Counted from the first letter of the stretch, positions 5,653-56,570 are shown. The stretch is DNA of 64,000 bases from Mesotaenium endlicherianum (GCA_009602735.1 WELA01002297.1:576805-640804), one strand, 5' to 3'. Notes: generated by a model not told the origin, from the letters alone. A program made the numbers and translations.

Positions 5653-6163
5653 CAGAGTTACGCCGTTTGCCAAGCTGGCCGACCTTTGTACGCTCAATTA
5701 AGCGAACTGAGTCGCTCGCACGAACTAAGCGAACCAAAAATTATTTACTTGTGTCGGCCGCCCAAGAACGCCTCGACGCGTGCACATCAGGCTCCCCACA
5801 ATTTGTTTAACTTGTGAGTTTGAATGAAGCATTGATCGACGCGATTGAAAACAAAAGTACACTAGCACAAGGTTTTTGAATGAGCAGCGGGAGCCCATAA
5901 GATCAAAAAACTTTGACGAAACTTTGAGACGAATGTTTTGGGATCCTCGAGTATCGCAGCATTCGTTGCACATTCATCTGCCTACCTAGCTGCTCACGGC
6001 ACAGTTAGGACCCCTTTGAGGCAAAACCTGCAACATACTTAAGACCCCTGTAGTGCTTTGTAGTTCATTCTGCACATCTTCTGTCATTGTAAGTTTGTCT
6101 CATCTTTCATTGACGTCTGCACCTTGCTCGCACTTTGCTCTGTACTTTGCTATTTTTGCTGAA

Positions 6164-7151
6164 TGTCATGATTTATTGAGTCGAGGTTGACGTACAAAAC
6201 CAAGCTTTACTTGTGTGAACCATCAACCTAGGAAGACCGACTTTGCATTGACCTTACGCATCTTTATATTGACCTTTTCTAGATTTTCACGTCATCAAAG
6301 TGTAGCGCGTCGAAGCATCTTCCGAATGGCACCAGTTTTGCGTCATTTGGTCAGGTATCGAGCGTGATATTTGCGATCTAGTCCGCGTCACCTACCGGCC
6401 CCTAACGGAAGTTTCCCAAGTGCCAACTTGTGACTCAATGTCCCCAAAGGTGACATTGTTGACTCTTCGTGATTCCAAAAGCCCTAGCTTTGTACGCACA
6501 AATCCGCAAACCCCTTAGACTACATAAGTCTTGCATTTCCATAGTATAAGTGCATCATTGAGGCTATAACTTGGTGACTGCATCACCTACTCAGATTCAC
6601 TTTTGAGGCGCTATCCAAGTAGAATCACCCAAGGTAAGCTCCACCACTGAGAGACACATAGCATATTCTAAGTGCCCTGCTTTGATTGGTTTGAGTTATG
6701 CTTAGCCTATAGGAGTGCTACTACATGCCTTGTACACATTAGTGGATATACGAGAGCCTCCTAGAGTGACTAGATGCATTGGATCCGCCGCATACCACGC
6801 CGGGTTTCCAGGATTATAAGTACTAGAGATGTCCCTAGAGAGACATCATTTTAGAAGTCCTCATTATGCCAGTTGTAAGTAACAGAGATTATGAGTAAAG
6901 CTTACACTTTTATCTCTTGTGTTTTCAGGACCACTTAGTTACTCTCTTGTGAAGAGCAAGCCTTCCTGGCTTCTAGTCACTTGAAGAACTTCACAAGTGG
7001 TGAGCAAAGTCACAGCTTAAACCCTTGCATGGGACTACTCTTGAAGATCATGATGTGCTTCCAATGATCTTTTGGGCCATACTTCATTAGTTGTTTTCCT
7101 ACCAGATTACAGTCTTGAGGTGCTCACTCTGGAGAGAACACACCCCCCTTA
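6164..7151 (+). repeat. Repeat a1 of element B (about 1 kb)
   Basis: Closely matches 17721-18734. It does not end in CA followed by a TGG primer site. The 3' boundary is approximate. Confidence 0.9.
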
Positions 7152-7380
7152 CTTCTAAAAGGATCTCTCTTTGCTTCGCTGACAAGCATCTAGAATGTTC
7201 AACGTATGCTTACCCGTAGTGGGCTATCTTATCAGCCATACTACGAAGGGGTTAGAAGACTCAGACTGAGATCTCAGCACTATCACTAAACCCTCTGGAG
7301 AGGAGCAACCCGCGCTCCAGCGCACGGCAGTTGCTTCTGAGCCACCGTCCCAGTGGGCTCACGACGATTCCTGGTATCCT

Positions 7381-8400
7381 ATGGCAGGTGACCAAGAGGT
7401 CAAGACTAACAGGTTCGCCTATCGCTTCAGCGGCCGGCCAGGCACCTGTGATCTGGAAGATACCATCTCGGAGTTTCAGGCTGACTTCGCAACAGCAAAG
7501 CTCAAGACGCCCACGCTGACGAAGCGCGACGCCTTTGACACGCTTATGCGCTACCTCTCTCACGAGGCCCGCGACACCTTCCGTGAGAAGGAAGCCGAGC
7601 TCCGGACACGTACCGAGCTTGTAGGTGACCCACCAGTGGCGACCACGCTGGCTGACCCAGTGCAAGCCTTCTGGAACATCCTGAAGACAAAGTTCCAGGC
7701 TGCAACTGAAGAAATGGTGTACGAGCTGCACCACTTCTTCCGACGCAAGAACGAGACGATCCTCATGATGTACCGCCGCTTGGTGCACCTACGCCGCGAC
7801 GTCGGCATTGTCACCGACCGGGAGGCCGCGGAGATCTTCTTGCGCGCCGTCGAGCCGCGTCTGAGGGAGAGGGCTGTCGTCCCCCTCATCGACCGCCACG
7901 ATTTAGAGTACTCATTGGAGCAGGCCTACCTCTCCATTGAGAAGCAGAGCTTGGCCGCCACACAGAGCAACATTAGCGATCGTTTGGGCCTCGCATCTAC
8001 GAGCGTGCGCCAGGAGGCCTCAGTGCTTCCATCTTTCATGATGTGCACGACTCTTGCCCGCTTGCCCCAGCAGCAGCAGCAGCCTTAGCACTCTCAACTG
8101 CCCCAGCAGACGCAGCAGCGCAAAGCTACGCGTGGCCGTATTTCCATGGCCGCTACGACAAGTGACCCCTGCTGGTCTTGCGAAAAGACGAGCCACTCAC
8201 GCCAGAACTGCACGCTCGCGCAAAATGTCAAGCCCGACGATTGCACCTACTGTGGCAAGGCCGGCCACCTGCAGATTGTGTGTCTGCAGAAGAAGCGCGA
8301 CGTCGAGATCCGGCGCGCTCGTGACGGTCCTTCGCCTGCAGCAGGACAGCAGGGCGGGCGCAACCCTCGCGCGGGTGTACGCCCTGCGATGACGGCAGCT
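7381..8400 (+). pseudogene. gag: Element B gag with two CCHC zinc knuckles (premature stop at 8086-8088)
   Basis: Capsid-like ORF 7381-8088 continues in frame into CWSCEKTSHSRQNC and CTYCGKAGHLQIVC. Confidence 0.8.
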
Positions 8401-9879
8401 ACGGCCACAACGGACACCGCGCTGACCCCCGGAGCCGACTATTGTAGCTATGACGATATCAGTGACGACCTCGTGGAGGCCAATGCGGGGATCGCAAGAC
8501 TTTGTGGCCTCTTCGACGCCAATAGCTACGACGCGTGCGGAGCGCTCTTTGCACACGCTCCATCGTCCTGCGCCACAGCTCTGACAGCTGGCGCCCGCAC
8601 AGTTCCTGCGCACACCACGCTGACACCTGTCAGTAGCAACAGCACACGCTCTGACAGGCTGCCAAACGGCAGGCTACAGGCCTGCGTTGCCGCACCATCC
8701 CCCGGCGTAGGCACGCCCGCAGACGACACCGCACGCACGCCAGCCCGGGCTCCGACAGAGCCCCTGGCCTGCGCTGCCCTGCTGTCTCCAGCAGGCTTCA
8801 CCTCGACCCGCGCAGCGACATCTAGCACGCGGGAACGAGCTCACTGGACGGCGCGCACGGTTGCCGTTAGCACAGCTGCCGAATCCCTTGTCGTACGCAC
8901 GGCACGACCATGCGCAGACCTGCGCACAGGCAAAAACAGCCGCCCCTTGCTGGCTTTCGCATACAGCAGGTCCCAGCAGAGGCCGCCACTTGTCGCCGGC
9001 ACGACGGGTGGTGTCGCTCCTGTTAACAACAGTGTGCCCGCGCGCGCACTCACACGCACGCGCACGCCGCACATTGCGCTGCCAGACCCGCTGCGCAGCT
9101 GGCGATGCCACGACAGCTCCGTAGCAGCAGCCACAGCAGCGCACGGCAGTTGCGCACAGGTGTTGCCACATGGCGCACGCACGCTGCCCCACACAGTCTG
9201 CGCAGAGACTGCGGTTGCGACCGCCATCTCCAGGCAGGGGGGGGCAACCCCGACTGCGCTGTGTGGCCGGATCCCCGGACAGGGCGCCGACGGCACGCCC
9301 CCAGCTGCGTGCAGCCAGGTGTTTACCCCTGGCGCACACGGGCCACCACTTGGCACGCGCACACAGCTCGGGCCAGCCAGCGATCTGGCGGTCGCGACCG
9401 CCATCCTCAGTCGGGGGGGGGCTACCCCGACGTCGCTGTGCTGCCAGATCGGCGTGCGGGGTCCCGACGGCACCACCACAGCTGCGCACAGCCAGGGCTT
9501 AAACCCTTGCTGCACGCAAAATTTCGGCGACAACGTATTTCGCGCTGCCGGGGCTCCAGCAAGTGGACGCACCAAGGGGAGGGCGCCGCGAGCCTTGCAC
9601 GGGGGAGCCGAGACGGGCGCTGACGCGGGTCTGACGACGTGACCCCACGGCTCCAGGAGCCACCAGGAGGCGCCACGTGGCAGCCTCCCGGCAGCCGCGT
9701 GCTCGCCAGCAGCTGCAACCGTTCCTGCAGCTGCGCACTCGACAGCCGCTGCGCTTCCGGCGGCTACGCATGCGCTTGCGCCTGTAGCGCTTGCGCCTGC
9801 ATCTGCGAGTGTGCCAACGTTTGCACCAGCGCCAGCCGTCATGACAGCGTCAGCCGCCACGCCAGTAGCGGCTAGCCTT

Positions 9880-10075
9880 GGGATCGTGGCAGGCCGCGCG
9901 ACAGGCTTTATGGCAGGCCGCGCGACAGGCTCAGCGGCAGGCCCTGCGGCAGGCTGCGCGCCAAGCCTTGGGGGAGGCTCTACGACAGGCAGCACGGCAG
10001 GTACTGCAGCAGGCCTTGCAACAGGCCTTGCGGCAGACCGCGCACCAGGCTGCGCGGCAGGCCTTGCGATTGCGC
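9880..10075. repeat. Imperfect 12-bp tandem repeat (GCAGGCCTTGCG-like) in the gag-protease linker of B
   Basis: Recurrent gcaggc/acaggc units; one frame translates as QAARQAL repeats. Confidence 0.7.
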
Positions 10076-10236
10076 CAGCAACTGCCATTCTGGCCTACTG
10101 CGCACGCACGCAGCCTCTCGGCAGTTGCCCTGCGGTCGGTCGCGCTAGCTGCGAGCACACGCTCGTGGCACCAGCCGGCCGGCCTGCGGCTTCACAGAAG
10201 CGCGACGGGCCAAACCAGGGATGACGGACGGAGGAA

Positions 10237-10926
10237 GTGTTGCGCCTGCCTCGTTCGTTTTGCGTGCTGGAGACGCCAGTAAAGCCCGCGTCATGCGTGC
10301 TCGCCTCGCCGAGAAGGACGGTGCAGCTCAGCGCCGAAGCCATCTTGCTGGCACTGCATCGCATGCCGGCGGTCTCCTTCGCGGAGCTCGGCGTTTCCAT
10401 GGAGGCAACAAGGCAGGCCGCTCATCTGCTGCTCTGGTCACGCGCAGACACTGTGCGCGCTGCCATTGGCAGGCCTACACCCGATGCCGCAACCGCGATG
10501 CGATCCGCACCAGCGCGCCCTGCGCATGAGCGCAAGATGATCAGCACTCCTAACGTCGCGTTTTTGGATAATTTGCACGGGATTGTGCTCGTCAACACCC
10601 AGGCGCCGCACTGCATGATGTTTGACACGGGCGCGCAGCCGGTCCTCATCAGCCTGCGCAACTTTCGTCGGCTGGGGCTCTCTTTGGCCGACCTGGAGGA
10701 CTCGTCGAGGCGCATCAACACCGCCGCCGGCACCTCCAAGTTCGTCACAGGCCGCACAAGGCTGGCATTGCGGTTCACTCTCCGCCCATGCACTGCAGAC
10801 AAGACGACCATCTATTGGCACGCGCTCGTTACTCCTTCAAAGTCCTTCGATGTTCTACTCGGGCAGGACGTGCTCTTTCCTATCGGCGTTGCGGTCGAGA
10901 ACTGGGCGGAGCGGGTCTTCTATTGA
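10237..10926 (+). pseudogene. Element B aspartic protease domain
   Basis: Catalytic DTG motif in MMFDTGAQPVLIS, and a downstream FDVLLGQD motif. Confidence 0.85.
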
Positions 10927-11170
10927 CCTGATTGGCAATCGGGAGGGATGCGCACGGCACCCTTGCCCCTTAACATCGTCAATCGCTGCCCAGCGGTGTC
11001 TGCTCTCTACGGATTCATGGGGCTGGGCGACGGCCAGCCAGTGGTCTAGACCGATGAGGGAGGGCCCGAGGACGAAGAGATCTCTGTGGGAGAGGACCTG
11101 CTTGAGCCGCAGGATGAGGAGCCGGATCTGCCTAGCGCAGAGCTCCACCTTACACCACATGAGCAAAGAA

Positions 11171-11377
11171 TGTCAAAGAATGTGACCCGGCTGTCAAAGA
11201 ATGTGTCAGCAAGCTGACTTAAGGTGACCTCAGCCTGTTACTTCAGGCCGAGTCATTAAACTTATATTAACTATAAAGTCTGGCAGACTGATCATTAACT
11301 AGAGTTCAGCAGGCTGAACTTATTTAACTATATTATTTAAATGAATATTATGTCAACCAATATACTGATTCATTACA
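11171..11377. mobile_element. AT-rich insertion of about 200 bp in B, possibly a short solo LTR related to 62720-62877
   Basis: Abrupt AT-rich block running TGTCAAAG...CATTACA. It shares GCTGACTT, GAGTCATTA and TGATTCATTA with 62720-62877. No clean TSD. Confidence 0.45.
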
Positions 11378-12753
11378 AGCAGGCAGATGTCCTGGCAGCC
11401 CAGGCCAGGGAGCAGATACGCATCTGCGCAGCGCACCGCGCCAGGATGCGGCAGATGGCGGAGGATACCACCGAGGCTCTTGCCGTTGCCCGTACTGCCG
11501 TTGCTGCCGCAGTCCTTGCTCGTGACACAGCGCACCTGCCCCCTCTTGCAGCGGGCCTTCAGCGAGGACAGACGTCCGCGTACGCCACGACGTACCCGTT
11601 GGCGTGGCCATCCAATACAGTAGGGACCTTGCACCAGGCCGCCTATCCTGGCGAGTCCAACGACCTACCCCTTGACAGCAACGAGAAGGAGGAAGAGCAG
11701 TGGGAGCAGCTTCCCGAGGAATCTGCAAAGGAGTACCTTGCGCAGCCATCGGAGGAGCCTCGGCCACCTACGCCCACGACGCATGTTCGACGCGGGCCTA
11801 CAAGCTCGCCCGGCTTTAGCAACTTGCCGCAGGGGGCCGCGGCCTGGTCCAACCGGGCCACGCCGCCGCAGCTAGAACAAGCCGTCCCATGTCCCATGAC
11901 TGCTCCACAAGCTACGAGTGCCGCGTCAGGCACTTATTCACCTCCGCCCGCGCGGCAGCTGCTCCTTCCAGCACTGCCACGCCTCCGGTACGCCAGCTGC
12001 AGGCTCACAGCAGCATTCGCGACCCGCCGCGCGAAGGCCCGTCTACCTGCGTTCATCCGCCCCTGCGATACGCACACCGCACCAGGCCGACCATTGGGCC
12101 CGCCCGAGAGACCACTCCTCTCCGCGAGACGAGGCGCCCACGGTAGCTCACGCCCCTGCGTGAGGCGCAAGAGGTCACTCCACTTTGCGAGCCGCGATCT
12201 CGCTCCATCACGCCGCCATATGATGACAGGAAGCGCACGCCCCCATACGACGACACTCAGAGCAAGGAGGCACGCCACCTTTTTGACCACTCCCAGACTG
12301 CGACGACACGCATTCCTCCTCGCAGGCGCATTACGCCCTGTACCTTGACCTTGCAGCTCAACGCGCCGACGTCCCCCGCAGCCACATCACAGGCGACGGC
12401 CCCTCGGGATTGCCTCCTCAAAAGGTGGCGCGCACAGGTGACAGGCCGCTTCCTCGCCACCCGTTCCCAGCAGCCACACGAGCAGAGCTCATGCCGCACC
12501 TCCGGCATCCCCGCGTGGAGCTAGCTCCGCGAGGGCAGCCCCGCCCGCGAGTCCAGCTGGCCCCGCACCAGCTCGTTCGGCCATGGCAGAGGGTTGACAA
12601 CCCAGAGCAATCGATTCGCACAGTCCCCGCAGACGCCAGGCGGGAGCGTCTGCGCGCCTACTTTGATCCGCATCCCTATTTGCCTCAGCGGCTCGTTTTG
12701 GACCAGTTGGCCCATGCAGCCTCGCACCAGGACGACCTTGCTCAGCGTGGCCG

Positions 12754-14376
12754 ATGGCAGCAGCTGTGCATTTGCATGGCCCGTCCTCAGGCCCGCGCTG
12801 GCCGCCGGAGGCCTTGCAGGACGCCTACATGAGGTGGCGTTCCTATCAGACCCATGGCCGGGAGGGGCGTACCCTGCCCATTGCGGACCACATTCCAGGC
12901 CTCACGCGCGACTACGTCGAGCGCGCCGTGGCTGCGCTCCGCATGGCGCCACATCAGCACAGTGCCGAGCGTACCTATCCGCCTCTCGCGCAGCCTGGCA
13001 ATCCTGCCATGGGGTGCCGCCCGCTGCCGACACCCATTTGTGTCGACCCGCTCAACGAGCATCCCGGCAGCATCGTGCTCGTGGAGCTCTTCGTTGAAAT
13101 CGCCACATGGCTGCTAGCGACCTTGCAGGCCGGCATTCCCGTACGCCGCCACGTCTATGTGGACCTCGATCTCGAGGCTCAGCAAGTGGCTCGTCGGGAG
13201 ATTGCTCTGTGCCACGAGCGGTTCCCAGACCTCCCTCCCGCGCACGCCTTCCGCCGCGCAGAGACGGACTGGCCCATGGACATCCGCGACATCACCGTCG
13301 AGCATGTCACTTGCCTTGGCCCCATCAATCTTATCATCGCAGGTTGGGAGTGTCAGGGATTTTCCAGAGCTGGGCGTGGCCAGGCACTCAGTGACCCTTG
13401 CACGGCCCTCTTCTGGCACCTGCTCCGCGTCCTCAACATGGTGGAGGACCGTCAGCCATCGCACACTCTTGCATGGGTCCTTGACAACTTGGACGCCCGC
13501 CACGACCACAAGCCCGATGTCAGTGCCGACTTTGCCCTTTGCAGCAGCTATGTCGGTCGTGAGGCCGTCATCGACGTTGCCCAGATTGGCTCATTTGCGT
13601 ATCGCGTCCGCGCCTACTTCACCAAACTGGCGATGCCGAGCACGCTCAAGGCTTTGGCAGCCGCCCATTTGCGCCACGCGCGCAATGTCGACTCCATCCT
13701 CGATGCCCCTCGGCTGGCGCAGCGGGTGACGGTGCTGCCACATCCCTCGCAGGCGCAGTGCGAGGTCCTTCACGCCGTTACTCGCGCGCTCCCTACCTTT
13801 GTCAGCCGCTACGACAGCGATGCCTTTGTGGGTGCTCAGCGCGAGATGGTCATTGATCTGGAGATTGGCATGTTCGACAGGCCCCGCCCGACAGAGATAG
13901 AATGCGCCATGGGCTTCCCGCCACACCTCACAGAGCTGGACGGTCTCACAGAGGTGAATCGTATTCGCCTCCTGGGACAGGCGATTGACGCCAACGTCCT
14001 CACACGGATCCTGCTTCAGACACAGGCCTTGGCCCCTCTTTACGCGGAGGCGCGCCACTCAGAGCTCCCTTGGCCTGCTAACGCTATGGACGAGGACTTC
14101 CCTGCCGATGACGGCCAGGCCCCGTCCGGCACCGCGTGGCATTCTCAGCGCGAGGGGCCTGCCCTGCAGGCGCGCGCACGCCCTCAGTCCCCGCCGCCAG
14201 CCCGTGACACTCCTGGTTCGCTGGGGGGGGACGCAAGAGAGAGGAGGCCTCACAGCGACCTAGGGAGTTCCAATTGTCATTTCTTTTTCCTCGCTCGTGA
14301 CCTCAGGCAGGCGGTGCAGTGTAGCTGGCAGCAGCTGCACAGGAGGAGGCACCCATCCCAGGCAGAGCACAAATAG
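12754..14376 (+). pseudogene. C5 cytosine DNA methyltransferase domain (core about 13072-14010) between the protease and RT of element B
   Basis: MTase motifs occur in order: I VELFVEIATWL (degenerate FxGxG), II YVDLD, III DIRDI, IV IIAGWECQGFSRAG (catalytic Cys at 13351), VI WVLDNL, VIII AYRVRAYF, IX TEIECAMGFP, X RIRLLGQAID. Confidence 0.88.
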
Positions 14377-14549
14377 CTGCAAGGCAGGCGACACCTGCAG
14401 CGCCACCGCTTACGCCAGCAGCAGGGCAGGAGGAGCCGGCTGCAGGGCAGGAGCCCTCACCAGCTGCGCCTACATGGAAGCTGGGGGGGACTCTTACTGA
14501 CGCCCAGGCGACACTGCTGACGACATCGCTGGATGGAAGACGCAGCGTC

Positions 14550-15900
14550 AGCTTCGCGAGCGGCATGCACGACCTCGGGCGCTCCAAGGGGGATCCCATG
14601 CGGATCCCTCTCACGTCCAAGGAGCCTATCTTCCTCAAGAGATATTGTTATAGTCACTCGAGAATGGACTAATCGGCGCACAAACAGGCAAGCTTGAGAA
14701 CAGTCGGCTCATCAAAGAGTCGTCGTCTTGCTATGCCGCGCCAACGGTCATGCCAGCCAAGAAGGATGCCTCGGGCAACTGGTCCGGGAAGAGGATGTGC
14801 TGTGACTATCGTTGACTGAACGAGGTCACTGAGCAAGACAGGTACCCTATGCCGACGCTAGACAAGATCCTCAATGACATTGGCACCTGCACTTGGTCTT
14901 ATTGCTGGACCTGCGCCAGGGCTTCAACCAGATTCCCATCGCCGAGGAGGATCAGCATAAGACGGCGTTCTGGGGGGCACAGTGCCTCTACGAGTGGATG
15001 GTGATGCCTTTTGGGTTGAAGAACGCGCCGGCCACCTTTCAAAGGGTCATGGAGAAGGAGGTGGCGGGGCTTCTCTTTGCCAGGTGCTACATCATTGACG
15101 TGCTCGTCTTCAGTGAGACGTTTGAGGAGCACGTGGCCCACATCATTGCTGTGTTGGAGCGCTCGGAGGCCGTGGGGCTCAAGTGCCATCCCGGCAAGTG
15201 TACGTTTGGGACTCGAGAGGTGGAGTACCTCGGGTATCTGCTCTCTTCGAGTGGTCTAGCGCCGCAACTGGCCAAGATCTCAGCCATCACCGGCATTCCG
15301 CCTCCCACGGATCTCTCGCAGCTAAGGGCCTTCCTTGGCATCGCCAACTACTATCAGCGCGTCGTGCCAGGGTTCAGCAAGCTGGCCAAGCTGCTCAACG
15401 ACTTGTTGCGGAAGGGTGTTGCTTATGTGTGGGGGCCAAAGCAGCAGGCGGTGTTTGACAAGCTCAAGGAGTTGTTGGTGAGCGCGACGGTGCTGCGACG
15501 GCCCGACTACAAGAAGCCCTTCATCCTCCACACCGGCTGGTCGCAGGCAGGGCTCGGTGCGGTGCTGGTGCAGGAGCATGAGGGCTTTGAGCACGTGGTG
15601 GCCTACGCTAGCCGCAGCAACAACCGCGCCGAGAGTAACTATGGCTCTAATGGGGGGGAGTGCCTGGCAGCAGTCTGAGCGATTGTGCACTTCAGGCACT
15701 ACCTCTACGGCACCCACTTCCGCCTGGTCACCGACCATCAGCCACTCAAGTGGCTCATGACGTCGGAGCGCCTGACAGGCAAGTACGCACGATGGGCGCT
15801 CATTTTGCAAGAGTACACCTTCGGCGTGCATCATCGCCCTGGGTCCACTAACATGGACGCCGACGGCCTCAGCCGTAACCCACTTTCATCGTCGAGGGAC
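14550..15900 (+). pseudogene. pol: Element B reverse transcriptase and RNase H (stops and frameshifts)
   Basis: KRMCCDYR*LN..DRYPMP, LDLRQGFNQI, MPFGLKNAPATFQ, YIID (mutated YIDD), FILHTGWS..LGAVL and TDHQPLKWL. Confidence 0.93.
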
Positions 15901-16079
15901 CTAACGGTGGCACGCCATGACGAGGACGAGCCTGTGGCATGGCACGCACCAGCATTCTTGGCCTTCACTGTGGACAGCGAGGTGCGACCTGCAGGGCTCA
16001 CAAGCCTGGCCATGGTGACTCTCAACACGCGACGCTTGGCATTGGCAGCAGCAGAGGAGCAGGACAGCTGGCAGCGGTG

Positions 16080-17350
16080 GCTCAATGACGTTTGGGAAGA
16101 CGCCCCAGTGCTGCAGTACGTTACCTCTAAGGAGATGGTTCCAGGCGTCACCAGGAGGGAGCGCGTGCGCATCCTCAAGCGCAGCCACGACTTCGTCTTC
16201 ATGGAGGGGTGCGTGCGCCGGGTGATGGCGGACGGCTCCGTCCTGGTGGTTCCTGAGCCTGCTATACGCAGTCAGCTTGTGCGCCGGGTACACGAGGCAT
16301 TGGGACACTTTGGTGTCAAGCTCACGCTCAGCCTTCTTTAGGCTGAGTATTGGTGGTCAGGCATGACTAAGGTCGTTGCCGACGTCGTCAGCAGCTGCAC
16401 TCTCTGCAACAGTGTGCGCTCGAGCTTCACAGCCCGCACCGTTGCTCTCAGCCCCCTCCCTATTCAGGGGCTTTTCTACAAGTGGTCGCTCGACTTGGCT
16501 GGAGAGCTGCCCAAGTCTCGCCGAGGCAACCTCTATATCTTGGTGATGATTGAGCACATGTCTAAGTGGATTGAGCTTGTGCCTTTGCCTAGCAAGGCCA
16601 GTAAGAGGATTGCTCAGGCCTTCCTCAAACAGGTCCTTAGCCGTTTTGGCGGCTGCGCTGAGATGCTGACCAACCAGGGCAAGGAGTTCCAGGGCAGCTT
16701 TCAAAAGCTGCTGGAGCACTCTATGATTGACCACCGCACCACCTCCCGCGATCATCCTCAGGCTGACGGCCTTGCAGAGCGTATGGTGCAGACCGTCAAG
16801 CTTGGGTTGCGGAAGTACTGCCTTGCCCACAACAGCACCCACAGGGACGACGCCCTCCCGTGGTTGGCTATGGGCTACAGGTTCAATAAGCAGGCCTCCT
16901 TGGCCTTGCACTCTCCCTACTTCTTTCGCTACGGCCGCCAGTCAGTCCTGCCCGCCGCAGCCAGGACCATGGCTGAGACCGTCTTGGACTTAGACAGTCC
17001 CGAGACGTGGAGCGCTCTTATTGGGCAGCGTGCGCAGCTCTTCTAGCGCTTGATGCCCATGGCCATGGATAACCTCAGCATCGCACAGCATCGCGACACT
17101 CTGAGATATGCCATGACTCGTGGAGGAGCATATCGTCCGCCGGTGTTGCAATTATCCGCAGGTGACTTCGTGTACCTGCGAAGTCAAACGAAGAACACCC
17201 TCGACATCAGCAGCTCGTCGGTCATCCTGCGCGTCAAGCGCGTCTTGGCGTCAGGAGTCCTAGAGCTGGAAGGCGCAGATGACCGTCTTCACAAGGACCA
17301 CACGAAAAACTGTGGACCATGCCACCTTCCAAACCTTGACTTGCAGATTC
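16080..17350 (+). pseudogene. Element B DDE (rve) integrase
   Basis: HHCC motif (HEALGH...CTLC), WSLDLAG (D), LTNQGKEF (D mutated to N) and GLAERMVQT (E). In-frame stops at ~16339 and ~17044. Confidence 0.9.
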
Positions 17351-17376
17351 GTCCCCGCGAGGCGCGCCCGCCCAAG

Positions 17377-17523
17377 GATTGGGCGTGCCAGATCTGCCAC
17401 AGTCGTGGCCAGGAGGCCACGATGCTGCTCTGCGACAGCTGCAAGCTCGGCTTCCACATTGGCTGCCTTGACCCGCCGCTGGCTCGCGTGCCAGCTGGAG
17501 ACTGGTTCTGCAGTGACTTCTTT
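17377..17523 (+). other. PHD finger at the integrase C-terminus of element B
   Basis: CQIC-x11-CDSC-x4-HIGC...WFCSDF fits C4HC3 with the last Cys lost. It includes the typical MLLCD and LDPPL..VP.GDWFC motifs. Confidence 0.88.
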
Positions 17524-17566
17524 GAGCTAGCTTTAGGCAGCGTTCATTGCCCATTAGCTGGAAGCT

Positions 17567-17583
17567 GAGAGCTCGGGGGGGAA
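17567..17583 (+). promoter_or_regulatory. Polypurine-tract-like sequence of B
   Basis: GAGAGCTCGGGGGGGAA lies immediately after the ORF and before repeat b1. Confidence 0.6.
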
Positions 17584-17718
17584 TTATAACATTCGAGACT
17601 TGACTCCCTTTTTGGCTATAAAGCCACATGTGTTATAGACTTCATTGCAGCATAGCTTGCTTGCTTATGATGTGTTGCTTGTCCCTATGTTGCTCACCCG
17701 ACCTCGTAACGCACGACA
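17582..17718 (+). repeat. Repeat b1 of element B (about 135 bp)
   Basis: Matches 18735-18869; both copies end CGACCTCGTAACGCACGACA. Confidence 0.9.
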
Positions 17719-17720
17719 GC

Positions 17721-18734
17721 CGTCATGATTTATTGAGTCGAGGTTGACGTACAAAATCGAGCTTCACTTGTGTGAACCATCAACCTAGGAAGACCGACTT
17801 TCCATTGACCTTACGCATCTATAGGTTGACCTTTTCTAGATTTTCAAGTCACCAAAGTGTGTTGCGTCAAAGCACCTTCCAAATGGCACCGGTTTTGCAT
17901 CATTTGGGCATGTATCGAGCGAGATATTTTGCGATCTAGTCCGCGTCACCTACCGGCCACTAGCGGAACTTTCCCAAGTGCCAACTTATGACTCAATGTC
18001 CCCAAAGGTGACATTGTTGGCTCTTCGTGACCCCAAAAACTCCTAGCTTTATACGCACAAATTTGCGAGCCCCTTAGACTATATAAGTCTTGCATTTCCA
18101 TAGCATAAGTGCATCATGGAGGCTATAACTTGGTGACTGCATCACCTACTCCTAGAGGAAGCTTCCTCAAGTTCCAAATTCACTTTTGAGGCGCTATCTA
18201 GGTAGAATCACCCAAGGTAAGCTCCACCAATGAGAGACACATAGCATATTCTACGTGCCCTGCTTTGATTGGTTTGAGTTCTGCTTAGCCTACAGGAGTG
18301 CTAGTACATGCCTTGTACACGTTAGTGGACATAGGAGAGCCTTCTAGAGTGAATAGATGCATTGGATCCGCCGCATACCACGCCGGGTTTCCAGGAGTAT
18401 TAGTACTACAGATGTCCCTAGAGAGAAAACTTCTTAGAAGTCCTCATTATGCCAGTTGTAAGTAACAGAGATTATGAGTAAAGCTTTCCCTTTTACCTCT
18501 TGTGTTTTCAAGACCACTTAGTTACTCTCTTGTGAAGAGCAAGCCTTCCTGGCTTCTAGTCACTTGAAGAACTTCACAAGTGGTGAGCAAAGTCACAGCT
18601 TAAACCCTTGCATGGGACTACTCTTGAAGATCATGATGTGCTTCCAGTGATCTTTTGGGCCATACTTCATCAGTTGTTTTCCTGCCAGATTACAATCTTG
18701 AGGTGCTCACTCTGGAGAGTACACACCCTCGTTA
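17721..18734 (+). repeat. Repeat a2 of element B
   Basis: Copy of 6164-7151 with about 25 extra bases near 18150-18175. Confidence 0.9.
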
Positions 18735-18869
18735 ATTAAAACATTGAGAGTTGACTCCCTTTTTGGCTATGAAGCCACATGTATTATAGACTTCATTGCA
18801 GCAAAGGTTGCTTGCTTATGATGTGTTGCTTGTCCCTATATTGCACACCCGACCTCGTAACGCACGACA
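18735..18869 (+). repeat. Repeat b2 of element B (right terminus)
   Basis: Copy of b1, followed by TGAA. Confidence 0.9.
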
Positions 18870-19376
18870 TGAATCTTTCAAATCTGGAACTATGTGGTGC
18901 TTGCTTTTGCATGATTTTTGTTCTTGTGTTCGATCTTGGTCTCAGAGTTTTCATCTGCGCTTACATTGCGCTTACCTGCCGTTTCTCTTTGTTGTGTTCT
19001 ATCTCTTCAGGGACGTTGACACGAGAAGGCGGCCAATTTGACACATTGTCATTGGCTTGTAATTTGAGGTGAGTTTGCTTCCCAACCCTTCTATCTTTCC
19101 TCTTAGCTAATCGTGTAGGTTCTCTACTACTTCTATGTCCTGCCTGTTGCATATTTAGTAATGCTATTCTTCCTTTTTTTTGAGTGTTTGGATACTATAA
19201 AGGCATGTGCCAATCCCACTTATGTGTTTGTCTCTTATGTTGCGCTCTTCATTCACTTCGCCTTTACCTTCATCTTTCACGCATCAGAAGCTCTTCTTCC
19301 AAGCATCAAAAGCTCCAGAGGTACTTCTGTAGCAGGTCTGCCTGGTGCCCCAGTGTCCCTGTTTGTTTGCTTGCTT

Positions 19377-23452: not shown

Positions 23453-24733
23453 ATGGCCGATCCTCAAGACCAACAGCAAGCTTTCGAAGGAAGCCCTTCC
23501 TCTCCAAGACACCCTCCTCCAGCGCCGATGGGAGAGCCCACTCAAGAAAATCTGCAACAACAAGAAGCACCACAAGGAGGAGCACACCCTCCTCCAGCGT
23601 CGATGGGAGAGCCTACTCAAGGAAATCTGCAACAACAAGAAGCACCACAAGGAGGAGCACCGTCAAATCCCGTGGCAGCCGCTATAGCAAAGTTGACCCC
23701 ACCACAAGGAGTTCCCGCAAATGAGTGGGCAGCCTTCCTAATGACCGTCCACAACCAAGTGGGCTTGGCCACCTATGAAGCAACCGTGCAAGCGTCAAGA
23801 GAAGCTATGGCTGCCATGGTTGCCCCTATTGCGAGCAATGCTCAAAATCCAGCCCCGGCTCAAGCGCCTCCACAAGAGCCAACGAGAGCAAGGAAACTCA
23901 TCAAGCCCGGCAAACCCGACACTTTCAACCCCGGGAAAGGTGCCAACCTGAATTTATGGCTCTACCAAGTGGAGACGTACCTCGCGTTCCTTGAAGTACC
24001 CGAGGAGGACTACGTTCCCTTTGCCGTTACCTTACTTAGAGGAGCAGCAACATCATGGTGGCGTAACTATCAAGCGGCTATATATCAAGCTATGGCGCAC
24101 CCCATGCTCGGCCAAGAGCCCCCACCATCATATGCAAGATGGGCAGATTTTCGTGAGGCCCTCAAGAAGCAATTCATGCCCATCAATGCGGAGAAGATTG
24201 CCCGAGGAAAGCTCCACCATCTCAAGCAAACGACGTCCGTTCAAGAGTATACATCCAGATTTCACGCCCTCACTCTTGAGATCCCCAACATGTCTCTCGA
24301 GGAGAAGATTGACCGTTACATCTTTGGCCTCAAACCCAAGGTGGCAAAGGAAGTGGAGTTACGCGACTTGACGGACTTCTCAAAGATCATTGAAGTGGCC
24401 CAAAAGGTGGATACCTTGGATTTCAAGCACTCCGTGCCTTCATCTTCACGGGTACCGACGACGCGGGTGTACGCAGCCCCTTCCACATCCGAATCTGGAC
24501 CCACACCCATGGAAATCGGAGTTATTAAAAGGGACCCCGCGGCTGCCCGGAAGAGTGGAAGACCCTCCAATGACACTTATGATGCAAGAAACCAGCAAGG
24601 AGTGAAAGCAAGACTCTCCCCGGCTGAAAAAGAAGCTCTCATGACGGCTGGACTATGCTTCTATTGCAAGGAAAAGGGCCATCGTGCACTTTCATGCCCC
24701 AAAAAGTTGTCAAAAAACGGACAGCGCCGGTAG
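23453..24733 (+). CDS. gag: D1 Gag (426 aa) with CCHC zinc knuckle
   Basis: Retrotransposon gag motifs ([22 protein letters not shown]) and knuckle [14 protein letters not shown]. Confidence 0.93.
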
Positions 24734-27700
24734 GCCAGGAGCCTACCACCCCAAGACCCACTTCACGAGAAGGCAACACGCCAAGTGAGGTGGAGACCCC
24801 CGTTGAAGACGACGTTCCAGCCCCAATGAGTTTGAGAGGTTACCTTGGAGGAGAGAAGGTCCACATCTTGGTGGATAGCGGAGCTCAAGGCAACTTCATT
24901 GCTGCAGATTTTGCCACCAAGCACGGTATTACTATGCGAACTCTTGACCACGACGAGGAGATTATGATGCCCGATGGATTCTCCTATACTACCCCTTCCA
25001 AGAAGACGTACCCCTTGGCACTCTCTATCAAGTCCTTCAAGGATAGAGTAGTGTTCTCCCCCATGCAATTGGGCAAGTACGACGTCATCCTAGGGACGCC
25101 TTGGTTGACCAAGCACAACCCCCAAGTTGATTGGAGGACCGGTACTATCAAGATCAAGAATGACATCACTTCAAGAATCTGTATTTTGCGCGCAATCCAG
25201 AATATCCAGACCCAAGACATCCAGAAGCCGGCACACGAGATACTATTGTCCGCCCTCCAACTCAAGAGACTTGTGAGGAAGGGACACGAGCTTCTTTTGG
25301 CCTTGATCACGCCAAAAGACATCAAGAAAGACATCGAGAGTCAAGAAGGCAGCCCCGTTCCCAAGGAGATACAAGAAGTCTTTGAGGACTACAAAGAAGT
25401 GTTCTCCCCGGAATTGCCCAAGGGCCTACCCCCCAAAAGATTCGTAGACCACAAGATAGAGTTGGAGCCCGGAAGCAAGCCCATCTCTCGGCCTACGTTC
25501 AAAATGTCATACACGGAGCTAGACGAAGTCAAGAAGCAAATCAAGGAGCTACTGGAGCATGGCTTCATTCGACCTAGCAAGTCGCCATTTGGAGCCCCGG
25601 TGCTATTTGTCAAGAAGAAAGATGGTACCTTGAGGATGTGTGTGGACTATCGCGCCCTCAACAAGATCACCATCAAGAATCGATACCCGCTGCCGCGCAT
25701 GGATGAGCTCATGGACCGGCTGGTTGGAGCCAAGTACTTCACGAAGATTGACTTACGGAGCGGCTACCACCAGATTCGCATCGCAGAACCGGACATAGAG
25801 AAGACGGCATTCAGGACAAGATATGGACATTTTGAGTTCATGGTCCTGCCATTTGGACTCACCAACGCGCCAGCAACTTTCATGACTATGATGAACACCA
25901 TATTTCAGCCCATGTTGGACAGATTTGTGGTGGTATTCATCGATGACATCCTTATCTACAGCAAGACCCTTGAAGAGCATGCGAGACACTTGAAAGAAGT
26001 CCTTGAAGTATTGAAGCAAAACAAGCTGTTTGCGAAGGAGTCAAAATGCGAGTTTGCCAAACAAGAAGTGGAGTTCCTAGGTCTCCACGTGACTGCTGAT
26101 GGCATCAAGATAGACCCCAAGAAGACCACGGTGGTGGAGGAATGGCCAACCCCCACGACCAAGAAAGAACTCCAGTCATTCTTGGGATTTGCCAATTGGT
26201 ACAGAAAATTCATCCAAGGCTTCTCGCACATAGCAGCCCCCCTGACAGATCTACTCAAGAAGGACAGGCTATATACATGGACCGAGAAAGAGGAAGAGGC
26301 ATTTCAAGAGTTAAAGCGAAGATTGACCACATCCCCGGTGCTCACACTCCCAAGTCCAAACCCAGATTGGCCCTTCCACGTCATCACCGATGCATCTTCC
26401 TATGCAATAGGAGCAATCCTGCTTCAAGACCAAGGCAAGGGACTGCAGCCCATCGCCTACGAGTCAAGGAAGCTAAATCCAGCCGAGCAAAATTATACAA
26501 CCACGGAGCGAGAGGCATTGGCGATTGTACATGCCTTGAAGGTTTGGCGCTGCTACGTTGAAGGACGCAAAGTACTGGTCACCACGGACCACGAGGCGTT
26601 AAAGCACCTCCAGACGCAGCCGTATCTCTCAAGGAGACAAGCAAGATGGAGCGGATACTTGCAACAATACAACATCACGATTCAGTACCAGCCCGGCAAG
26701 ACAAACCCGGCTGACCCCCTCTCAAGACTGCAATTAAATGCAGTGATGGTATCCCTGAAGACAGATCTGGAAGCTCGATTTTCAGCCGCCTATGAAAGAG
26801 ACCCTTACTACAAGAACGGAGAAGCAGCCTTGGACCCATGCAAGAAGCAAGAAGGCAATTATTGGGTGAGGCAAGATACGGGCCAGAGATGTGTTCCTAA
26901 TGACTTAGACCTCCGGCTCTTGCTTCTACGAGAAGCACACGACAACCCTCTTGGAGGACACTTTGGAATCCTAAGGACCACGGGCGTTCTAGCTAGGACT
27001 TATTGTTGGCCAGGCATGTCTAAGCAAGTCAAGGAGTACTGCAGGAGCTGTGACACATGCCAAAGAATCAAGCCATCATCGCAAAAGGCGGGAGGACTCC
27101 TCCAACCACTACCAATCCCCGAAAGACAATGGACGGACATCTCAATGGACCTTATCGTGGACTTGCCCGTGACACCTCGAGGCCATAATGCAATACTCAC
27201 GGCGGTGGACAGACTTACCAAGATGGCTCATTTTATTCCCACGACGACTAAGGCTACAGCACCACAACTTGCAAGACTCATCTTTGACAACATCTTCCGA
27301 CTCCATGGACTACCATCAAGAATTGTGTCAGATAGAGATCCAAGATTCACAAGCCATTTCTGGAAAAATCTCTTCAAGAACTTGGGTACATCGCTGGATA
27401 TGTCTACTGCCTACCACCCACAATCAGATGGGCAAACCGAGCGTATGAATCGTACCCTAAAGACCTCTCTAAAGGCCTACGTGTCTACCCTCGAGCAAGA
27501 CTGGGACATGTACTTGACCCCCCTCGAGTTTGCCTACAACAACACTACGCAGGCCTCTACCCAAGAGTCCCCATTCTTCCTCAACTATGGCTTCCATCCG
27601 ACCACGCCACTGAGCTTCACGGCTGGCCATGATGAAGTACCTGCAGCCACAGATTTTATGGAGACATTAGAAGCAGCCCTTACAGCAGCGAAGAAAGCTC

Positions 27701-28320
27701 TACAACACGCGCAAGATGCTCAAGCAAGAGTGGCGAACAGATCCAGAAGAGAAATTACGTACAGAGTGGGTGACAACGTGTTACTATCATCCAAGAACAT
27801 TTCCCTGAACAACAGGCCTGCCGGCAGCAAGTTCTCTCCCAAGTATTTGGGACCCTTCAAGATTATCCAGCAAGTCAACCCCGTTGCTTTCAAGCTAGAA
27901 CTTCCCCAGACTATGCACATCGACCCCGTATTCCACGCTTCCCTCTTCAAGCCATATGTGCAACCCGACAACAAGTTCCCAGGACGTGTGACAACCCCAC
28001 CAGCCCCAACAATAGTGGATGATCATTTGGAGTACGAAGTGGAAGACATAGTGGCTATGAGAAATTTCAGGAGACAGCAGCAATACTTGATCAAGTGGAA
28101 AGGATATCCAGATTCGGAGAATAGTTGGGTGGCGGCGCACTACCTTGACAAAGTTCAGAGAAAGTTGAAGCGCTTCCATGCCGCCAACCCCCATCTTGGA
28201 CCAGCCCCAAGTCTCTCTACTAGAAGCCCGAAGACTTCAGGGAGGCAGCCTGCCACCATCAAGAAGCAGCAGAAGACCCCTTGGAGGCAGCCTGCAAGAA
28301 CAAGAAAGAGGAAAAATTGA
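24655..28320 (+). CDS. pol: D1 Pol: protease-RT-RNase H-integrase-chromodomain, likely expressed by -1 frameshift
   Basis: Uninterrupted 1221 codons with [22 protein letters not shown] and DDE motifs, and chromodomain YEVEDIV...[15 protein letters not shown]. Confidence 0.96.
24712..24718 (+). promoter_or_regulatory. Putative -1 ribosomal frameshift heptamer A AAA AAC
   Basis: Lies in the gag frame (TCA AAA AAC) within the gag/pol overlap. Pol is in the -1 frame, and the heptamer is conserved in D2 (~54843-54849, minus strand). Confidence 0.75.
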
Positions 28321-39054: not shown

Positions 39055-39976
39055 TGTAACGATTTGAGCTTTTTAGGCGTATTTGGAACGTTTTCCCCGA
39101 TTGCCTAAAATACGTTATGCTATTTATCGTACATTATTTGATAAATGATTGCATCACATTAAATTATTTGCCACACGCGTGTGCCAATTAATTCCCGGTC
39201 GATTGGCGAAACGACCGAGATACTTTTGCAAAAAGCGTCGTAACGTAATTCGACTACTTCGCAAAAGTACAACATAATTAATCATAAAGTTACTTTGATT
39301 AATTATGAGATTATAACTTAATAAATCATTGTTTGATAAAGTTATTTTGATTGTCATTATTCCGGATAATGCGCAATTACAGATTTTGGATTTACGACCA
39401 GTCGTTAACACGAACAAAGAGTCATAAAAGTCAAACAACACATAATATGCAAAGCGACTTTGCATTCGAGCGGAATCGAACCCGCAATTTGGCATTTGAA
39501 ACGTTCACACCTAACCGATTGGCGAAGTAGTTTTTATAACTATGGGTTCATGATGAAAAGCATGTGTACGCAACTTCGCAAACTGGAGCAACTTTTCGAA
39601 AAGTCGCGAGAACGCGTAAACGCCCGTTTGGCGCGAAACGGTTTTCCGGACATCGTCGAAACGTCTCCAAACGGCCAAACAGCGCGTTTTGAGCATTCAA
39701 CCGAAATGGGTCGTACCTCTTCGCCTGTTTTTGTTGACATGAACCAGTGCCCTAGGTGGTGACTCGAAGCACTCCAGTGCCTCACGTTGTGGAGGTATAA
39801 ATACCTGCAGGGTCATTGTGAGTGCAACTCTCACAAGCACACATTCTACGTTAGTTTTCAATTTCGCTTTTCCGAGGATTTGTCAATTTTCACAAGTATA
39901 TAGATTTTCTTTCCACTTCATTTAAATACTCCTTGAATACCAAGGAAAGATCCTCTCAAAAAGAAGAAACGTTACA
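39055..39976 (+). repeat. 3' LTR of C1
   Basis: Homologous to 19377-20297. Confidence 0.92.
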
Positions 39977-39981
39977 TGCTT

Positions 39982-40850
39982 AGGGCTGGCTGGCTTGCTG
40001 AAGTGCTGCAACTGGTCGCCCCCCTGTTGTGTTTCTGCTTGCCCGGGGCGGGTTGGGTGCTGTTGTGCCGCAACTGGCCGCCCCCGTGTTGTGTTTCTGC
40101 TTGCTCGGGGCGGGCTAGCTGCTGCAGTGCTGCAGCGGGCTGACCCAGTGTCCCTGTTTGTCTGCTTGCTCGGGGCTGGCTGGCTTGCTGCAGTTTTGCA
40201 GCTGGCCGCCCCCGTGTTGTGTTTCTGCTTGCCCGGGACGGTTTGGTTGCTGTGTGCTGCAGTGGCCCCTATTTGTTTGCTTTTTTTTTTTCTTTTTTTT
40301 TTTGTTTGTTTGCCTGCCCCCGTACTGCACTTTTTGTGCTTGTTCTTCTTGAGGCGGGCTGGCTGCTGCATTGCTGCAGCTACCCAACCTTGTTTTTCTT
40401 TTTTACAAATCCCGACTGGCTATTTGCTATTTTTTTGTTGCTGTATTACTTGGACGGGCTGGTTGCTGCAGTGCTGCAGCTAGGCGTCCCCGTTCTATTG
40501 CGTTTGTGCTTTAGTCGGGGCGGGGTGCTTGCTGCAGTGCTGCAACTGGCTGCCTTCGTGTCCCTGTTTGTTTACTTGCTCGGGGCTGGCTGGCTGCTGC
40601 AGTGCCGCAGCTGGCCACCCCCGTGTAGTGTTTCTGCTTGCCCGGGGCAGGCTGGCTGCTGCTGTGCTGCAGCTGCCCGCCCCCGTCTGACTTTTTGTTT
40701 GTTGCAACCCTTGTATTCCTATTTTGTTGCTTTCCTGGGGCTGGCTGGCTAGCTGCAGTGCTGCAGCTGCCAGCCCCCGTATCGATGTTTTTTTGCTTAC
40801 CCGGGGCGGGTTGGCTGGTACAGTGCTGCAGTTGCCTACCCCTATGTTGC
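39982..40850. repeat. Imperfect tandem array (about 55-60-bp units) upstream of the hAT transposase
   Basis: Recurrent GGGGCTGGCTGGCT-GCTGCAGTGCTGCAGCTGGC-CCCCGTG units. The array begins left of the C1 insertion, near 19330. Confidence 0.8.
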
Positions 40851-41046
40851 TGTTTTTTTTGCTTGCTCTGCTGCTGCTCTTCCTATGCTTGCCTCTCTTG
40901 CTGTCCTATTGTTGCTCTCTTTGTGCTTGCCCTTGCTGCTGCTCCTATAATGTTGTCTTGACTACTGCCCAGTTGTTGCTCTCTTTACTGCTTATTTTTT
41001 TACTGCTTCATTTATTTCCGTTGTTATTGCAGGTTTCACGCGCATC

Positions 41047-41701
41047 ATGTCTCAAGCATCCACTTTGTGTGGAGCAACGCTTGCTGGAATAAGAGGGGCT
41101 ATTGGAGCTTTAATCGCTTATCTGCCCCCTAGAGCAGGTGCTGCAAGATCTGGTCCAAAGTGGGCCCATGTATCCATCGTTGCGGAAGCCAAGACGAAGA
41201 ATGCACATTCAAAGGTCAAGTGCAACTATTGCTTCGACGAGTTTGTCGCTGGAGTAACCAGGATTCGTGGCCATCTCACGAGAGGACTTACGGATGTTGG
41301 TCAGTGTGAGGAGGTTCCTGATGAGGTTCTAGATGTCATAATTCCTTGTTTTAATGGTTCGTCTAGTGGTGTCTTGGGAAAGCGACGTAGTACAAGTGCC
41401 ATGCAAGCTGCACGAAAGCACGTGTTTGAATGGGGTTCTGGTGCTAGTGGCTCCCCCTCCTTAAGCTGGGAGACTGGACATACCTTCCTTCGTGACATGT
41501 ACCAAAACATGAATGCTGATGCTGTCCATGAGATTGTTGCTCGCTTCTTCTATGGTACTGGTTCATCACTAAATGTTGCTCGCAGCGAGTTCTTTAGAGA
41601 GATGTTGGTTGCAGTTAGTAAATACACCCAGGAAACAGGTGTACTGTATGTCCTAATGAAGGATAAGCCGCTCAGAAGTACCCTACTAAATAGAGAGGTG
41701 T
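41047..41701 (+). pseudogene. hAT transposase N-terminal part with BED zinc finger, cut by D2
   Basis: KWAHV..VKCNYC..GVTRIRGHL..C. Removing D2 and one TSD restores the frame LLNREVLKIEAW into the DGW catalytic motif. Confidence 0.88.
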
Positions 41702-56032: not shown

Positions 56033-56570
56033 CTTCTTGTGCTACCAAAGTGCCTGGCTCCGATACAACTGTAGTGAAACAGATAAATAAAGTACTTAAC
56101 AAAGTAGAATACTTTATTTAGTCATGACTAGGATCTTTAAACATAAGTGGTAGCTTCTTGAAAGAGAGATGGTTTTAAGAAAGTTGATATATTTCTCAAA
56201 CTTGGCAAGTACAAGAGTGATTCTCAAATGCCGTTCTATGCTCTAGCTATTGTTTATATACTTGCTACGAAAGTAATTTCTAGGAAGGTGCATGTTGATG
56301 TGTTGGCACCCAACACATCCCAAAACTTGCCACCTCTTCTAGAATAATGTACACATATTCTTTTGACCTAAAAAAGGAACATTTAACTTTTGCCATATGG
56401 AATTCTTCTAGGTCTTTCCTCTAACTTCGAAAATGCCTTAAGGTTCAAAGGATATGAACCAAGTCACTAGAGTATCTACACTTGACTCCACACAATACTA
56501 CTCCGAATATATTCAAAAGTATTAATAGATATGCAAACTAATATATTATAAGTCAAATCACTACAGGTGT

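Follow-up and report, generated by a model that had tools for sequence, protein, structure and literature searches.

The stretch described here occupies positions 6164 to 18869 of a 64,000-nt piece of the Mesotaenium endlicherianum genome (GCA_009602735.1 WELA01002297.1:576805-640804), which was analysed as a whole and is referred to below as the window. It is almost certainly a Gypsy-type retrotransposon that belongs to the KnitGypsy-Dnmt3 kind and has decayed; as such it is a previously undescribed, dead copy within a published, little-studied kind that carries a C5 DNA methyltransferase (DNMT). An earlier reading of this DNA, made from the sequence alone (the sequence-only reading), had pointed to a 2018 paper on DNMT-carrying retrotransposons; the paper exists and describes such elements in Klebsormidium (PMC5890265). 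The end structure, on which that reading was silent, is a more unusual feature than the combination of domains: in place of ordinary long terminal repeats (LTRs), we found split repeats in the order A1-coding-B1-A2-B2.

The element starts with TGTCATG at 6164 and ends with CACGACA at 18869, and comparison of its ends shows TGAA as the target-site duplication on both sides (6160-6163 and 18870-18873). In runs X1, X2, and X5, a contig passes directly from 6159 to 18870 and leaves out 12710 nt, i.e., the 12706 nt of the element plus 4 nt; because it differs from the window flanks at ~22 positions, we regard it as a paralogous empty site. Repeat A1 (6164-7150) is ~91-93% identical to repeat A2 (17721-18733; K2P 0.072), and repeat B1 (17582-17718), which ends with CACGACA, is 93% identical to B2 (18734-18869), which forms the right terminus. 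A G7 run (17575-17581) closing a polypurine tract adjoins B1, and a 2-nt spacer, GC (17719-17720), separates B1 from A2 at the center of a CA-GC-TG palindrome, whose T is C in the window copy. These and the other parts of the element described below lie on the plus strand, apart from a repeat insertion to which no strand is assigned.

Inside the repeats, a Pfam scan of the element translations (11 frames) bore out the order gag-PR-DNMT-RT-RH-INT-PHD given by the sequence-only reading (PR, RT, RH, and INT standing for protease, reverse transcriptase, RNase H, and integrase), with Pfam domains in that order from the protease to the PHD finger and the Gypsy set PR-RT-RH-INT among them. The gag region (7270-8285) was recognized from translation of its open reading frame (ORF) and from weak matches to relatives; it has two CCHC-like knuckles (~8170-8285) and no Pfam gag match. 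A long Ala-rich spacer with short internal repeats (9211-9515 and 9889-10068), in which other copies have deletions, lies between gag and the aspartic protease (10588-10875; DTG motif; PF13975, E = 1.3e-9). The reverse transcriptase (14690-15237; RVT_1, E = 1.7e-22) and RNase H (15430-15816; RT_RNaseH) are followed by the integrase (16258-17340), comprising an H2C2 part, a DDE core at 16477-16758 (rve, E = 2.3e-13), and a C-terminal part. No tyrosine recombinase, chromodomain, or DAM was matched in the 11 frames; an rve integrase and a protease are present in place of the first, and a PHD finger after the integrase in place of the others.

The DNMT domain (13045-14031) is ~325 aa long, slightly more than the ~310 aa first estimated, and the five motifs by which it had been recognized all lie within the ORF at 12667-14376; motifs I, IV, VI, VIII, IX, and X are at 13081, 13333, 13474, 13597, 13882, and 13960. 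Its Pfam DNA_methylase match is barely above threshold (22.1 bits, cut-off 22, E = 1.2e-4), and when the decayed domain of the window was used in a protein search based on words, no match was obtained. The assignment as a C5 methyltransferase of DNMT3 type nonetheless held, with DNMT3 first by sequence, profile, and fold. The best matches among solved structures are DNMT3C and DNMT3A (5e-8), and a profile of 48 family sequences matches DNMT3A at 8.6e-28, DRM at 1.7e-13, and M.HhaI at 4e-9. The top Foldseek matches of an AlphaFold model (pLDDT 92.5, a confidence that comes from the family alignment and says nothing about the folding of this copy) are DNMT3A/B, with E = 1.9e-19 and TM 0.70/0.81 for DNMT3A. 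In a viral collection, only weak phage and giant-virus methyltransferase matches were seen (best E = 2e-9), which support no viral donor. Of the 150 homologues listed, 98 are full-length and share ~30% identity; all of these (98/98) have the catalytic Cys, the Gly of motif I, the Glu of motif VI, and the Arg of motif VIII, and such constancy across deep divergence argues for an active family enzyme. The residue before the catalytic Cys in motif IV is Glu in 55 of the 98 and Pro in 34, and by this alignment the Glu of the window's GWECQ is a family variant rather than a lesion.

The PHD finger (17386-17520; PF00628, 45.7 bits, E = 6.6e-12) does follow the integrase, as had been claimed, but it is not a full C4HC3 finger in this copy: seven of the eight zinc ligands are kept, and the eighth is Phe, compared to Cys in 98 of 102 relatives. 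Its nearest solved counterparts are those of KMT2D, CHD4, PHF12, UHRF1, BAZ, and KDM5. It is without the tryptophan cage that we take to mark H3K4me3 readers, and by criteria of this kind, which we assume to hold, it would be classed by sequence as a binder of unmethylated H3K4.

The suspected inactivity of this copy was confirmed, and judged from its coding sequence, it is dead. The DNMT keeps its catalytic Cys (13351) and has lost the motif-I Gly, a loss already suspected, as well as the motif-VI Glu and the motif-IX Arg (present in 92/98 homologues). One catalytic Asp is missing, relative to 81 relatives, from each of RT (YIID replaces the DD pair), RNase H (the first Asp), and integrase (the second). 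Stops are found, among others, at 8086 in gag, at 10924, at 14813, at 15676 in RNase H, and at 16339 and 17044 in the integrase region; RT is frameshifted and holds one stop, and frameshifts were located between 14.2 and 14.9 kb. A 216-bp AT-rich repeat is inserted at 11162-11377 (joint 11161->11378 in contigs of three of four runs) and is missing from other copies. This repeat is very high-copy and transcribed, has a sharp boundary at 11377, and has a weak second copy at 62723-62784.

The family and its relatives

The DNMT is carried by the element family and is not a private insertion of the window copy. We searched with the integrase alone, took the best 80 of 525 confirmed stretches, and examined 51 loci of at least 5 kb: all 26 loci with both PR and RT have a DNMT between them, and 20 of the 26 have a PHD finger (re-assemblies included). 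In run X1, from the organism of the window itself, 13,122 pieces of contigs fell on the element, and a 1650-nt contig from run X5, ~91% identical, spans the DNMT C terminus to RT.

A protein search with the DNMT returned 808 clusters at E<=1e-3 and 53 at <=1e-30. Among 237 proteins, cluster members included, the DNMT lies before RT in 38 and after RNase H in 139, while 54 give no order and 6 have none. The pairing of a methylation writer with a chromatin reader, put forward by the sequence-only reading, turned out to be common rather than special, since 100 of the 134 relatives that hold both DNMT and INT also have a PHD finger (cluster members included). It is also dispensable: no PHD finger is seen in 12 relatives that have an integrase and a DNMT preceding RT, although some of these may be truncated. 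The closest intact relative, P0188, is a 2358-aa protein with the window's order; it is the best match to the window PR, RT, RH, and INT and is 58% identical over RT-RH-INT.

Members with the DNMT before RT are found in Closterium, Klebsormidium nitens, Calypogeia, Marchantia, and Sphagnum, and those with the DNMT after RNase H in the chlorophytes Monoraphidium and Chromochloris. This second branch, with the DNMT between RNase H and integrase, comprises P0214, P0111, and 72 full-length relatives; its named members are chlorophytes. In both FastTree trees, of RT-RH-INT and of DNMT, the two orders lie on opposite sides of a single branch (support 100 and 99). These trees held no host DNMT3 and had a single long-branch outgroup, so that they fix neither the root nor a single DNMT origin nor the direction of the move. 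At the level of the 99% split, the window DNMT lies on the same side as K. nitens P0051 (GAQ93235); from its architecture, P0051 may be one of the copies in the 2018 paper.

In two relative loci, a single in-frame TAG separates gag-PR-DNMT from RT-RH-INT-PHD (L079:5083-5091 and L086:4661-4669). It is followed by CAGTTA or CAATCA, which we take to fit a CARYYA read-through signal, and six proteins (P0179-81, P0183, P0184, and P0186) end at that motif; L067 and P0188 read through without such a stop. A stop of this type would cause the DNMT to be made at the level of Gag. P0254, P0257, and P0261 are near-identical PR-DNMT pieces with intact motifs (Marchantia Mp8g17980, MARPO_0008s0049, and MARPO_0084s0073), and Marchantia models annotated as methyltransferases, Mp8g17980 for example, are by their sequence element-derived; no mention of the three gene ids was found in the literature searched. 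The element in L067 adjoins a PPR gene with E and DYW domains (L067:14160-15548), a land-plant gene type.

Terminal repeats and a proposed route of replication

The DIRS-like layout A-coding-B-A-B is shared by the window and relatives, with four complete A-B-A-B loci. Relatives have the same termini despite unrelated repeat interiors, and in them, too, a G-run directly precedes B1. The spacer between B and A is exactly 2 nt (CA-NN-TG) in 22 of 22 relative loci, which represent 14 distinct insertions (L106 and L107 were counted as one insertion, separate from L059), and it is also 2 nt in L079, L086, and L099, which belong to other families. The spacer forms GC, AC, GT, and AT would all derive from CAGCTG by C-to-T changes on either strand. 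The 4-bp duplication is exact in three of the six loci with both ends and off by one transition in the other three. The A/B join, on the other hand, takes six forms in 12 distinct insertions (0 in four, -2 in four, two different -1 forms, +1, and one larger loss), and it differs between the starred sisters L067 and L077. In another locus (L060:1805-1929), B is followed directly by an inverted piece of A, as though one copy had inserted into another's repeat.

Copies with a single B (A-coding-B) account for 21 distinct insertions in 26 loci. With loci left out in which B is truncated or the contig ends, these interleave on the tree with the 14 split-repeat insertions (10 changes, compared to 11.2-11.4 after shuffling), and their end branches are equal in length (p 0.83), so single-B copies are no older. 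They may also have come from B1-B2 recombination following insertion.

Directly after A1, there is a primer-binding-like site (7151-7160), to which 10 nt at 6849-6858 are a Watson-Crick match; the latter would be a Tf1-type self-primer and the 5' end of the genomic RNA, and it lies 34 nt downstream of a TATA-like box (6815-6820). None of 30 slid controls reaches this match. A Watson-Crick run of 8-14 nt with the site after A1 is present in the window and in seven of 10 relatives, at 0/30 in slid controls (1/30 for L081); seven of these eight copies keep the TATA box, one having lost it, and in the seven the run begins 31-34 nt downstream of the box. In L118, a change on one side of the pairing is matched by a change on the other. 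A tRNA-type TGG start is absent after A1, and the window has no tRNA gene.

Transcripts of family copies are sense strand and rise sharply in bin 6788-7231, with pile-ups of 5' ends at 6877 (run X10) and at 6497 (run X15) and of fragment ends at 7123 and 7146. As most reads are 85-95% alike to the window, they come from other copies, and the flanks before 6164 are varied. A 295-nt GT..AG intron in A (6634-6928; joints 18214->6927 and 18216->18512 in four of four RNA runs) is spliced in transcripts that start further upstream, with 5' ends near 6497. It holds the TATA box and the putative primer; its A2 counterpart (18217-18511) has a mutated acceptor in the window copy. Since the intron-using transcripts start upstream of the TATA box and primer, repeat A seems to drive two RNA classes.

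Overall, we think it probable that this is a KnitGypsy-Dnmt3 copy with an inside-out LTR, B-GC-A, which moves as a DNA circle opened by its integrase. The early steps are the likelier part. The RNA would start ~33 nt after the A1 TATA box, and its first 10-12 nt, paired with the bases that follow A1, would serve as the minus-strand primer in the manner of Tf1; the plus strand would be primed at the G-run before B1, yielding a linear cDNA, [B-GC-A]-coding-[B-GC-A]. A primer site that follows A and a polypurine tract that precedes B would delimit the reverse-transcribed repeat as B-GC-A, the promoter-bearing A being one half of it; the cDNA would begin with B and end with A, and the integrase sites would face each other inside the repeat. 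The later steps we favor by a little. The cDNA ends would be joined imprecisely to give the A/B join (A2/B2 in the window copy), and the integrase would cut after CA on both strands, drop the 2-nt spacer, and insert the DNA with a 4-bp duplication, producing A-coding-B-GC-A-B; of this last step, the duplication itself is observed. A join made anew each time is expected to be imprecise, which fits its six forms in 12 insertions and the differing sisters. The common A-coding-B copies would stem from circles with one repeat or from cDNA cut twice, and further replication would be closed to them.

Several observations weigh against this account. The circle and the cDNA are postulated from genomic sequence. 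A circle with two equal junctions ought also to yield the mirror form A-B-GC-A-coding-B, but in none of the 10 loci whose 5' end is visible does B lie upstream of A1, so the two junctions are not used equally. Three of the 10 relatives have no self-primer match, and a free-energy control is weaker than the run-length control (0-10/200 shuffles and 8-13/30 slid windows are equally stable). The copy tree is star-like, with five of 32 branches starred. The end-structure data come mainly from one relative family, and the window's GC spacer comes from a single copy. Over the DNMT, RNA reads are near zero in four of four runs (6-24% of each run read), and six reads in run X10 cross from A into B, so transcripts can enter B.

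The last of these points is what a DIRS-like cycle would predict, in which the RNA would run from A1 into B2, the A/B join would be copied from it, the B1/A2 junction would serve as template for restoring both ends of a circle, and the integrase would insert that circle, with unchanged junction chemistry but another mode of reverse transcription; A1-internal-B1-A2-B2 is, moreover, the textbook split-repeat form of DIRS elements (accessible text of PMC8969392; PMC5890265, Fig. 4c legend). We nevertheless consider this cycle unlikely. It forecasts neither a G-run exactly at the start of B1 nor a primer site at the end of A1, nor six join forms independent of the tree, and it leaves the absent mirror form unexplained; DIRS elements use a tyrosine recombinase and make no target duplications (PMC8969392, in the part accessible), and no recombinase is encoded here. 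A route that needs no free circle is rather improbable: linear cDNA would be cut at the left palindrome, both pieces inserted, and A joined to B in the chromosome by host repair. It gives the same A-B-A-B product with the same sloppy join, and cutting at both palindromes would yield the 21 single-B insertions directly, but two separate DNA pieces must stay together through repair, and the absence of the mirror form is again left unexplained. That this is an ordinary LTR element (LTR = A+B) whose layout and DNMT stem from a private rearrangement or a captured host gene can be ruled out with near certainty, even though A2+B2 resembles one TG..CA LTR and the window copy has another private insertion (11162-11377), for the layout, termini, and spacer are the same in unrelated families, the DNMT is present in 26/26 loci and in the bridging contig of ~91% identity, and the DNMT and RT-RH-INT trees share their main split.

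Possible roles of the DNMT and PHD finger, and the surrounding window

Taken with the circle model, the data allow a broader proposal, which is tentative: a Gypsy clade spanning the green lineage would have an inside-out LTR with its integrase sites in mid-repeat as a CA-GC-TG palindrome; fertile copies would arise only from end-joined DNA opened by integrase in the way of a restriction enzyme; and the element's own DNMT3 would mark that DNA and may choose which junction is spared. Methylation of the new cDNA by a DNMT from the same polyprotein is quite conceivable, if short of an even expectation, and was the hypothesis of the 2018 authors (PMC5890265, accessible text). A little less assuredly, the PHD finger might bind unmethylated H3 tails and direct insertion away from promoters.

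Two results speak against cDNA methylation. In yeast, no methylation was obtained with the KnitGypsy DNMT, a result that its authors called inconclusive, and only the DIRS enzymes were active (PMC5890265, accessible text). Decay of the repeats is highest at CHG (0.21), followed by CG (0.16) and CHH (0.06), a bias that points to host enzymes and says nothing for the DNMT of the element. Together with the relatives, the CHG bias suggests a streptophyte host. CpG depletion as a trace of self-methylation does not discriminate, as depletion in the coding region (0.84-0.98) is no stronger than elsewhere in the window (0.68-0.79).

The yeast result would also suit a DNMT fold that acts mainly otherwise, either binding DNA or RNA in the particle or methylating the junction palindrome as a shield that keeps the element's own integrase away from one junction of the two and from genomic copies. 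Such shielding would explain the use of a single junction; the Glu before the catalytic Cys in 55/98 homologues and the single stop after gag-PR-DNMT in L079 and L086, which would make the domain as abundant as Gag, are in keeping with a role of this sort. We find it doubtful, because core catalytic residues invariant across deep divergence argue for catalysis, shielding is speculation, and at the junction the decay of cytosines is in the CHG context, as is typical when the host methylates.

Nested chromoviruses make up most of the window; one chromovirus pol (24628-28320) has an open frame of 1230 aa as well as a chromodomain. Transposase fragments at 40951-41706 and 56552-58322, which from their translation we take to be hAT-like, and a tandem repeat of 62-66 nt (~39966-40860) are also present.

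Comparison with known systems

The nearest published element is KnitGypsy-Dnmt3 of K. nitens, likewise with a Dnmt3-type domain in a Gypsy Pol and a DIRS-like repeat layout; the Fig. 4c legend gives DIRS-like repeats with Gypsy domains, noted without a mechanism in the accessible text (PMC5890265). GAQ93235 has the gag-PR-DNMT order of the window and groups with the window DNMT on the side of the before-RT order. The accessible text of that paper names no PHD finger, termini, target duplication, or replication model, and "PHD" has no occurrence in three of its supplements, although Fig. 4c might show one. It also treats the capture as confined to the lineage of K. nitens, whereas relatives were found here in Closterium, Marchantia, Calypogeia, Sphagnum, Monoraphidium, and Chromochloris. 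The family thus extends DNMT3-carrying retrotransposons to bryophytes and chlorophytes; a 2019 review, in its accessible part, described them as absent from land plants such as tracheophytes. In the literature searched, which did not cover subscription journals, we found neither a replication model for Gypsy-DNMT3 elements nor a bryophyte placement. Such elements would be overlooked or wrongly cut by LTR finders that search for a pair of equal terminal repeats.

Tf1-type elements have ordinary end-to-end LTRs, and Tf1 and Tj1, unlike the window element, have no DNMT. The likeness lies in self-priming, as the 5' end of their RNA is complementary to a site after the 5' repeat (PMC4600332, accessible text), an arrangement predicted here.

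Whether retroviral 2-LTR circles are precursors of integration is an old debate, to which this element adds an anatomy that seems to demand junction cleavage, with a short, defined substrate. Foamy-virus integrase cleaves a palindromic circle junction at which the 2 nt between the CA dinucleotides are lost at integration (PMC1180852 and PMC1905944, accessible parts). There the junction occurs only in circles, a side route (PMC1180852, accessible part), whereas in the window element it is a fixed internal part. Troyka elements (Kuafuorterviruses) were considered and rejected as a match, with CG..CG termini, a 3-bp duplication, short ordinary LTRs, and animal hosts (PMC12440569, accessible text), compared to TG..CA and 4 bp here. 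Selgy/Phygy, considered as PHD-bearing clades, found no support among the papers listed.

DIRS elements with split direct repeats (PAT and Ngaro) share the A1-internal-B1-A2-B2 layout, and SymbioDIRS-Dnmt3 has a DNMT3 in its Pol; as described in the accessible sources, they have a tyrosine recombinase and no target duplication, in contrast to the DDE integrase, protease, TG..CA ends, and 4-bp duplication of the window element. A Gypsy polyprotein with a PHD finger and biased insertion is known from Chlamydomonas Gypsy-7a_cRei, whose listed domains, in the accessible text, do not include a DNMT (bioRxiv 10.1101/2022.06.16.496473). EpiLTRs, like the window element, combine a methyltransferase and a chromatin reader in one LTR element, but according to the accessible text their DNMTs are related to DNMT4 and come together with DAM and a chromodomain (bioRxiv 10.64898/2026.05.21.726589).

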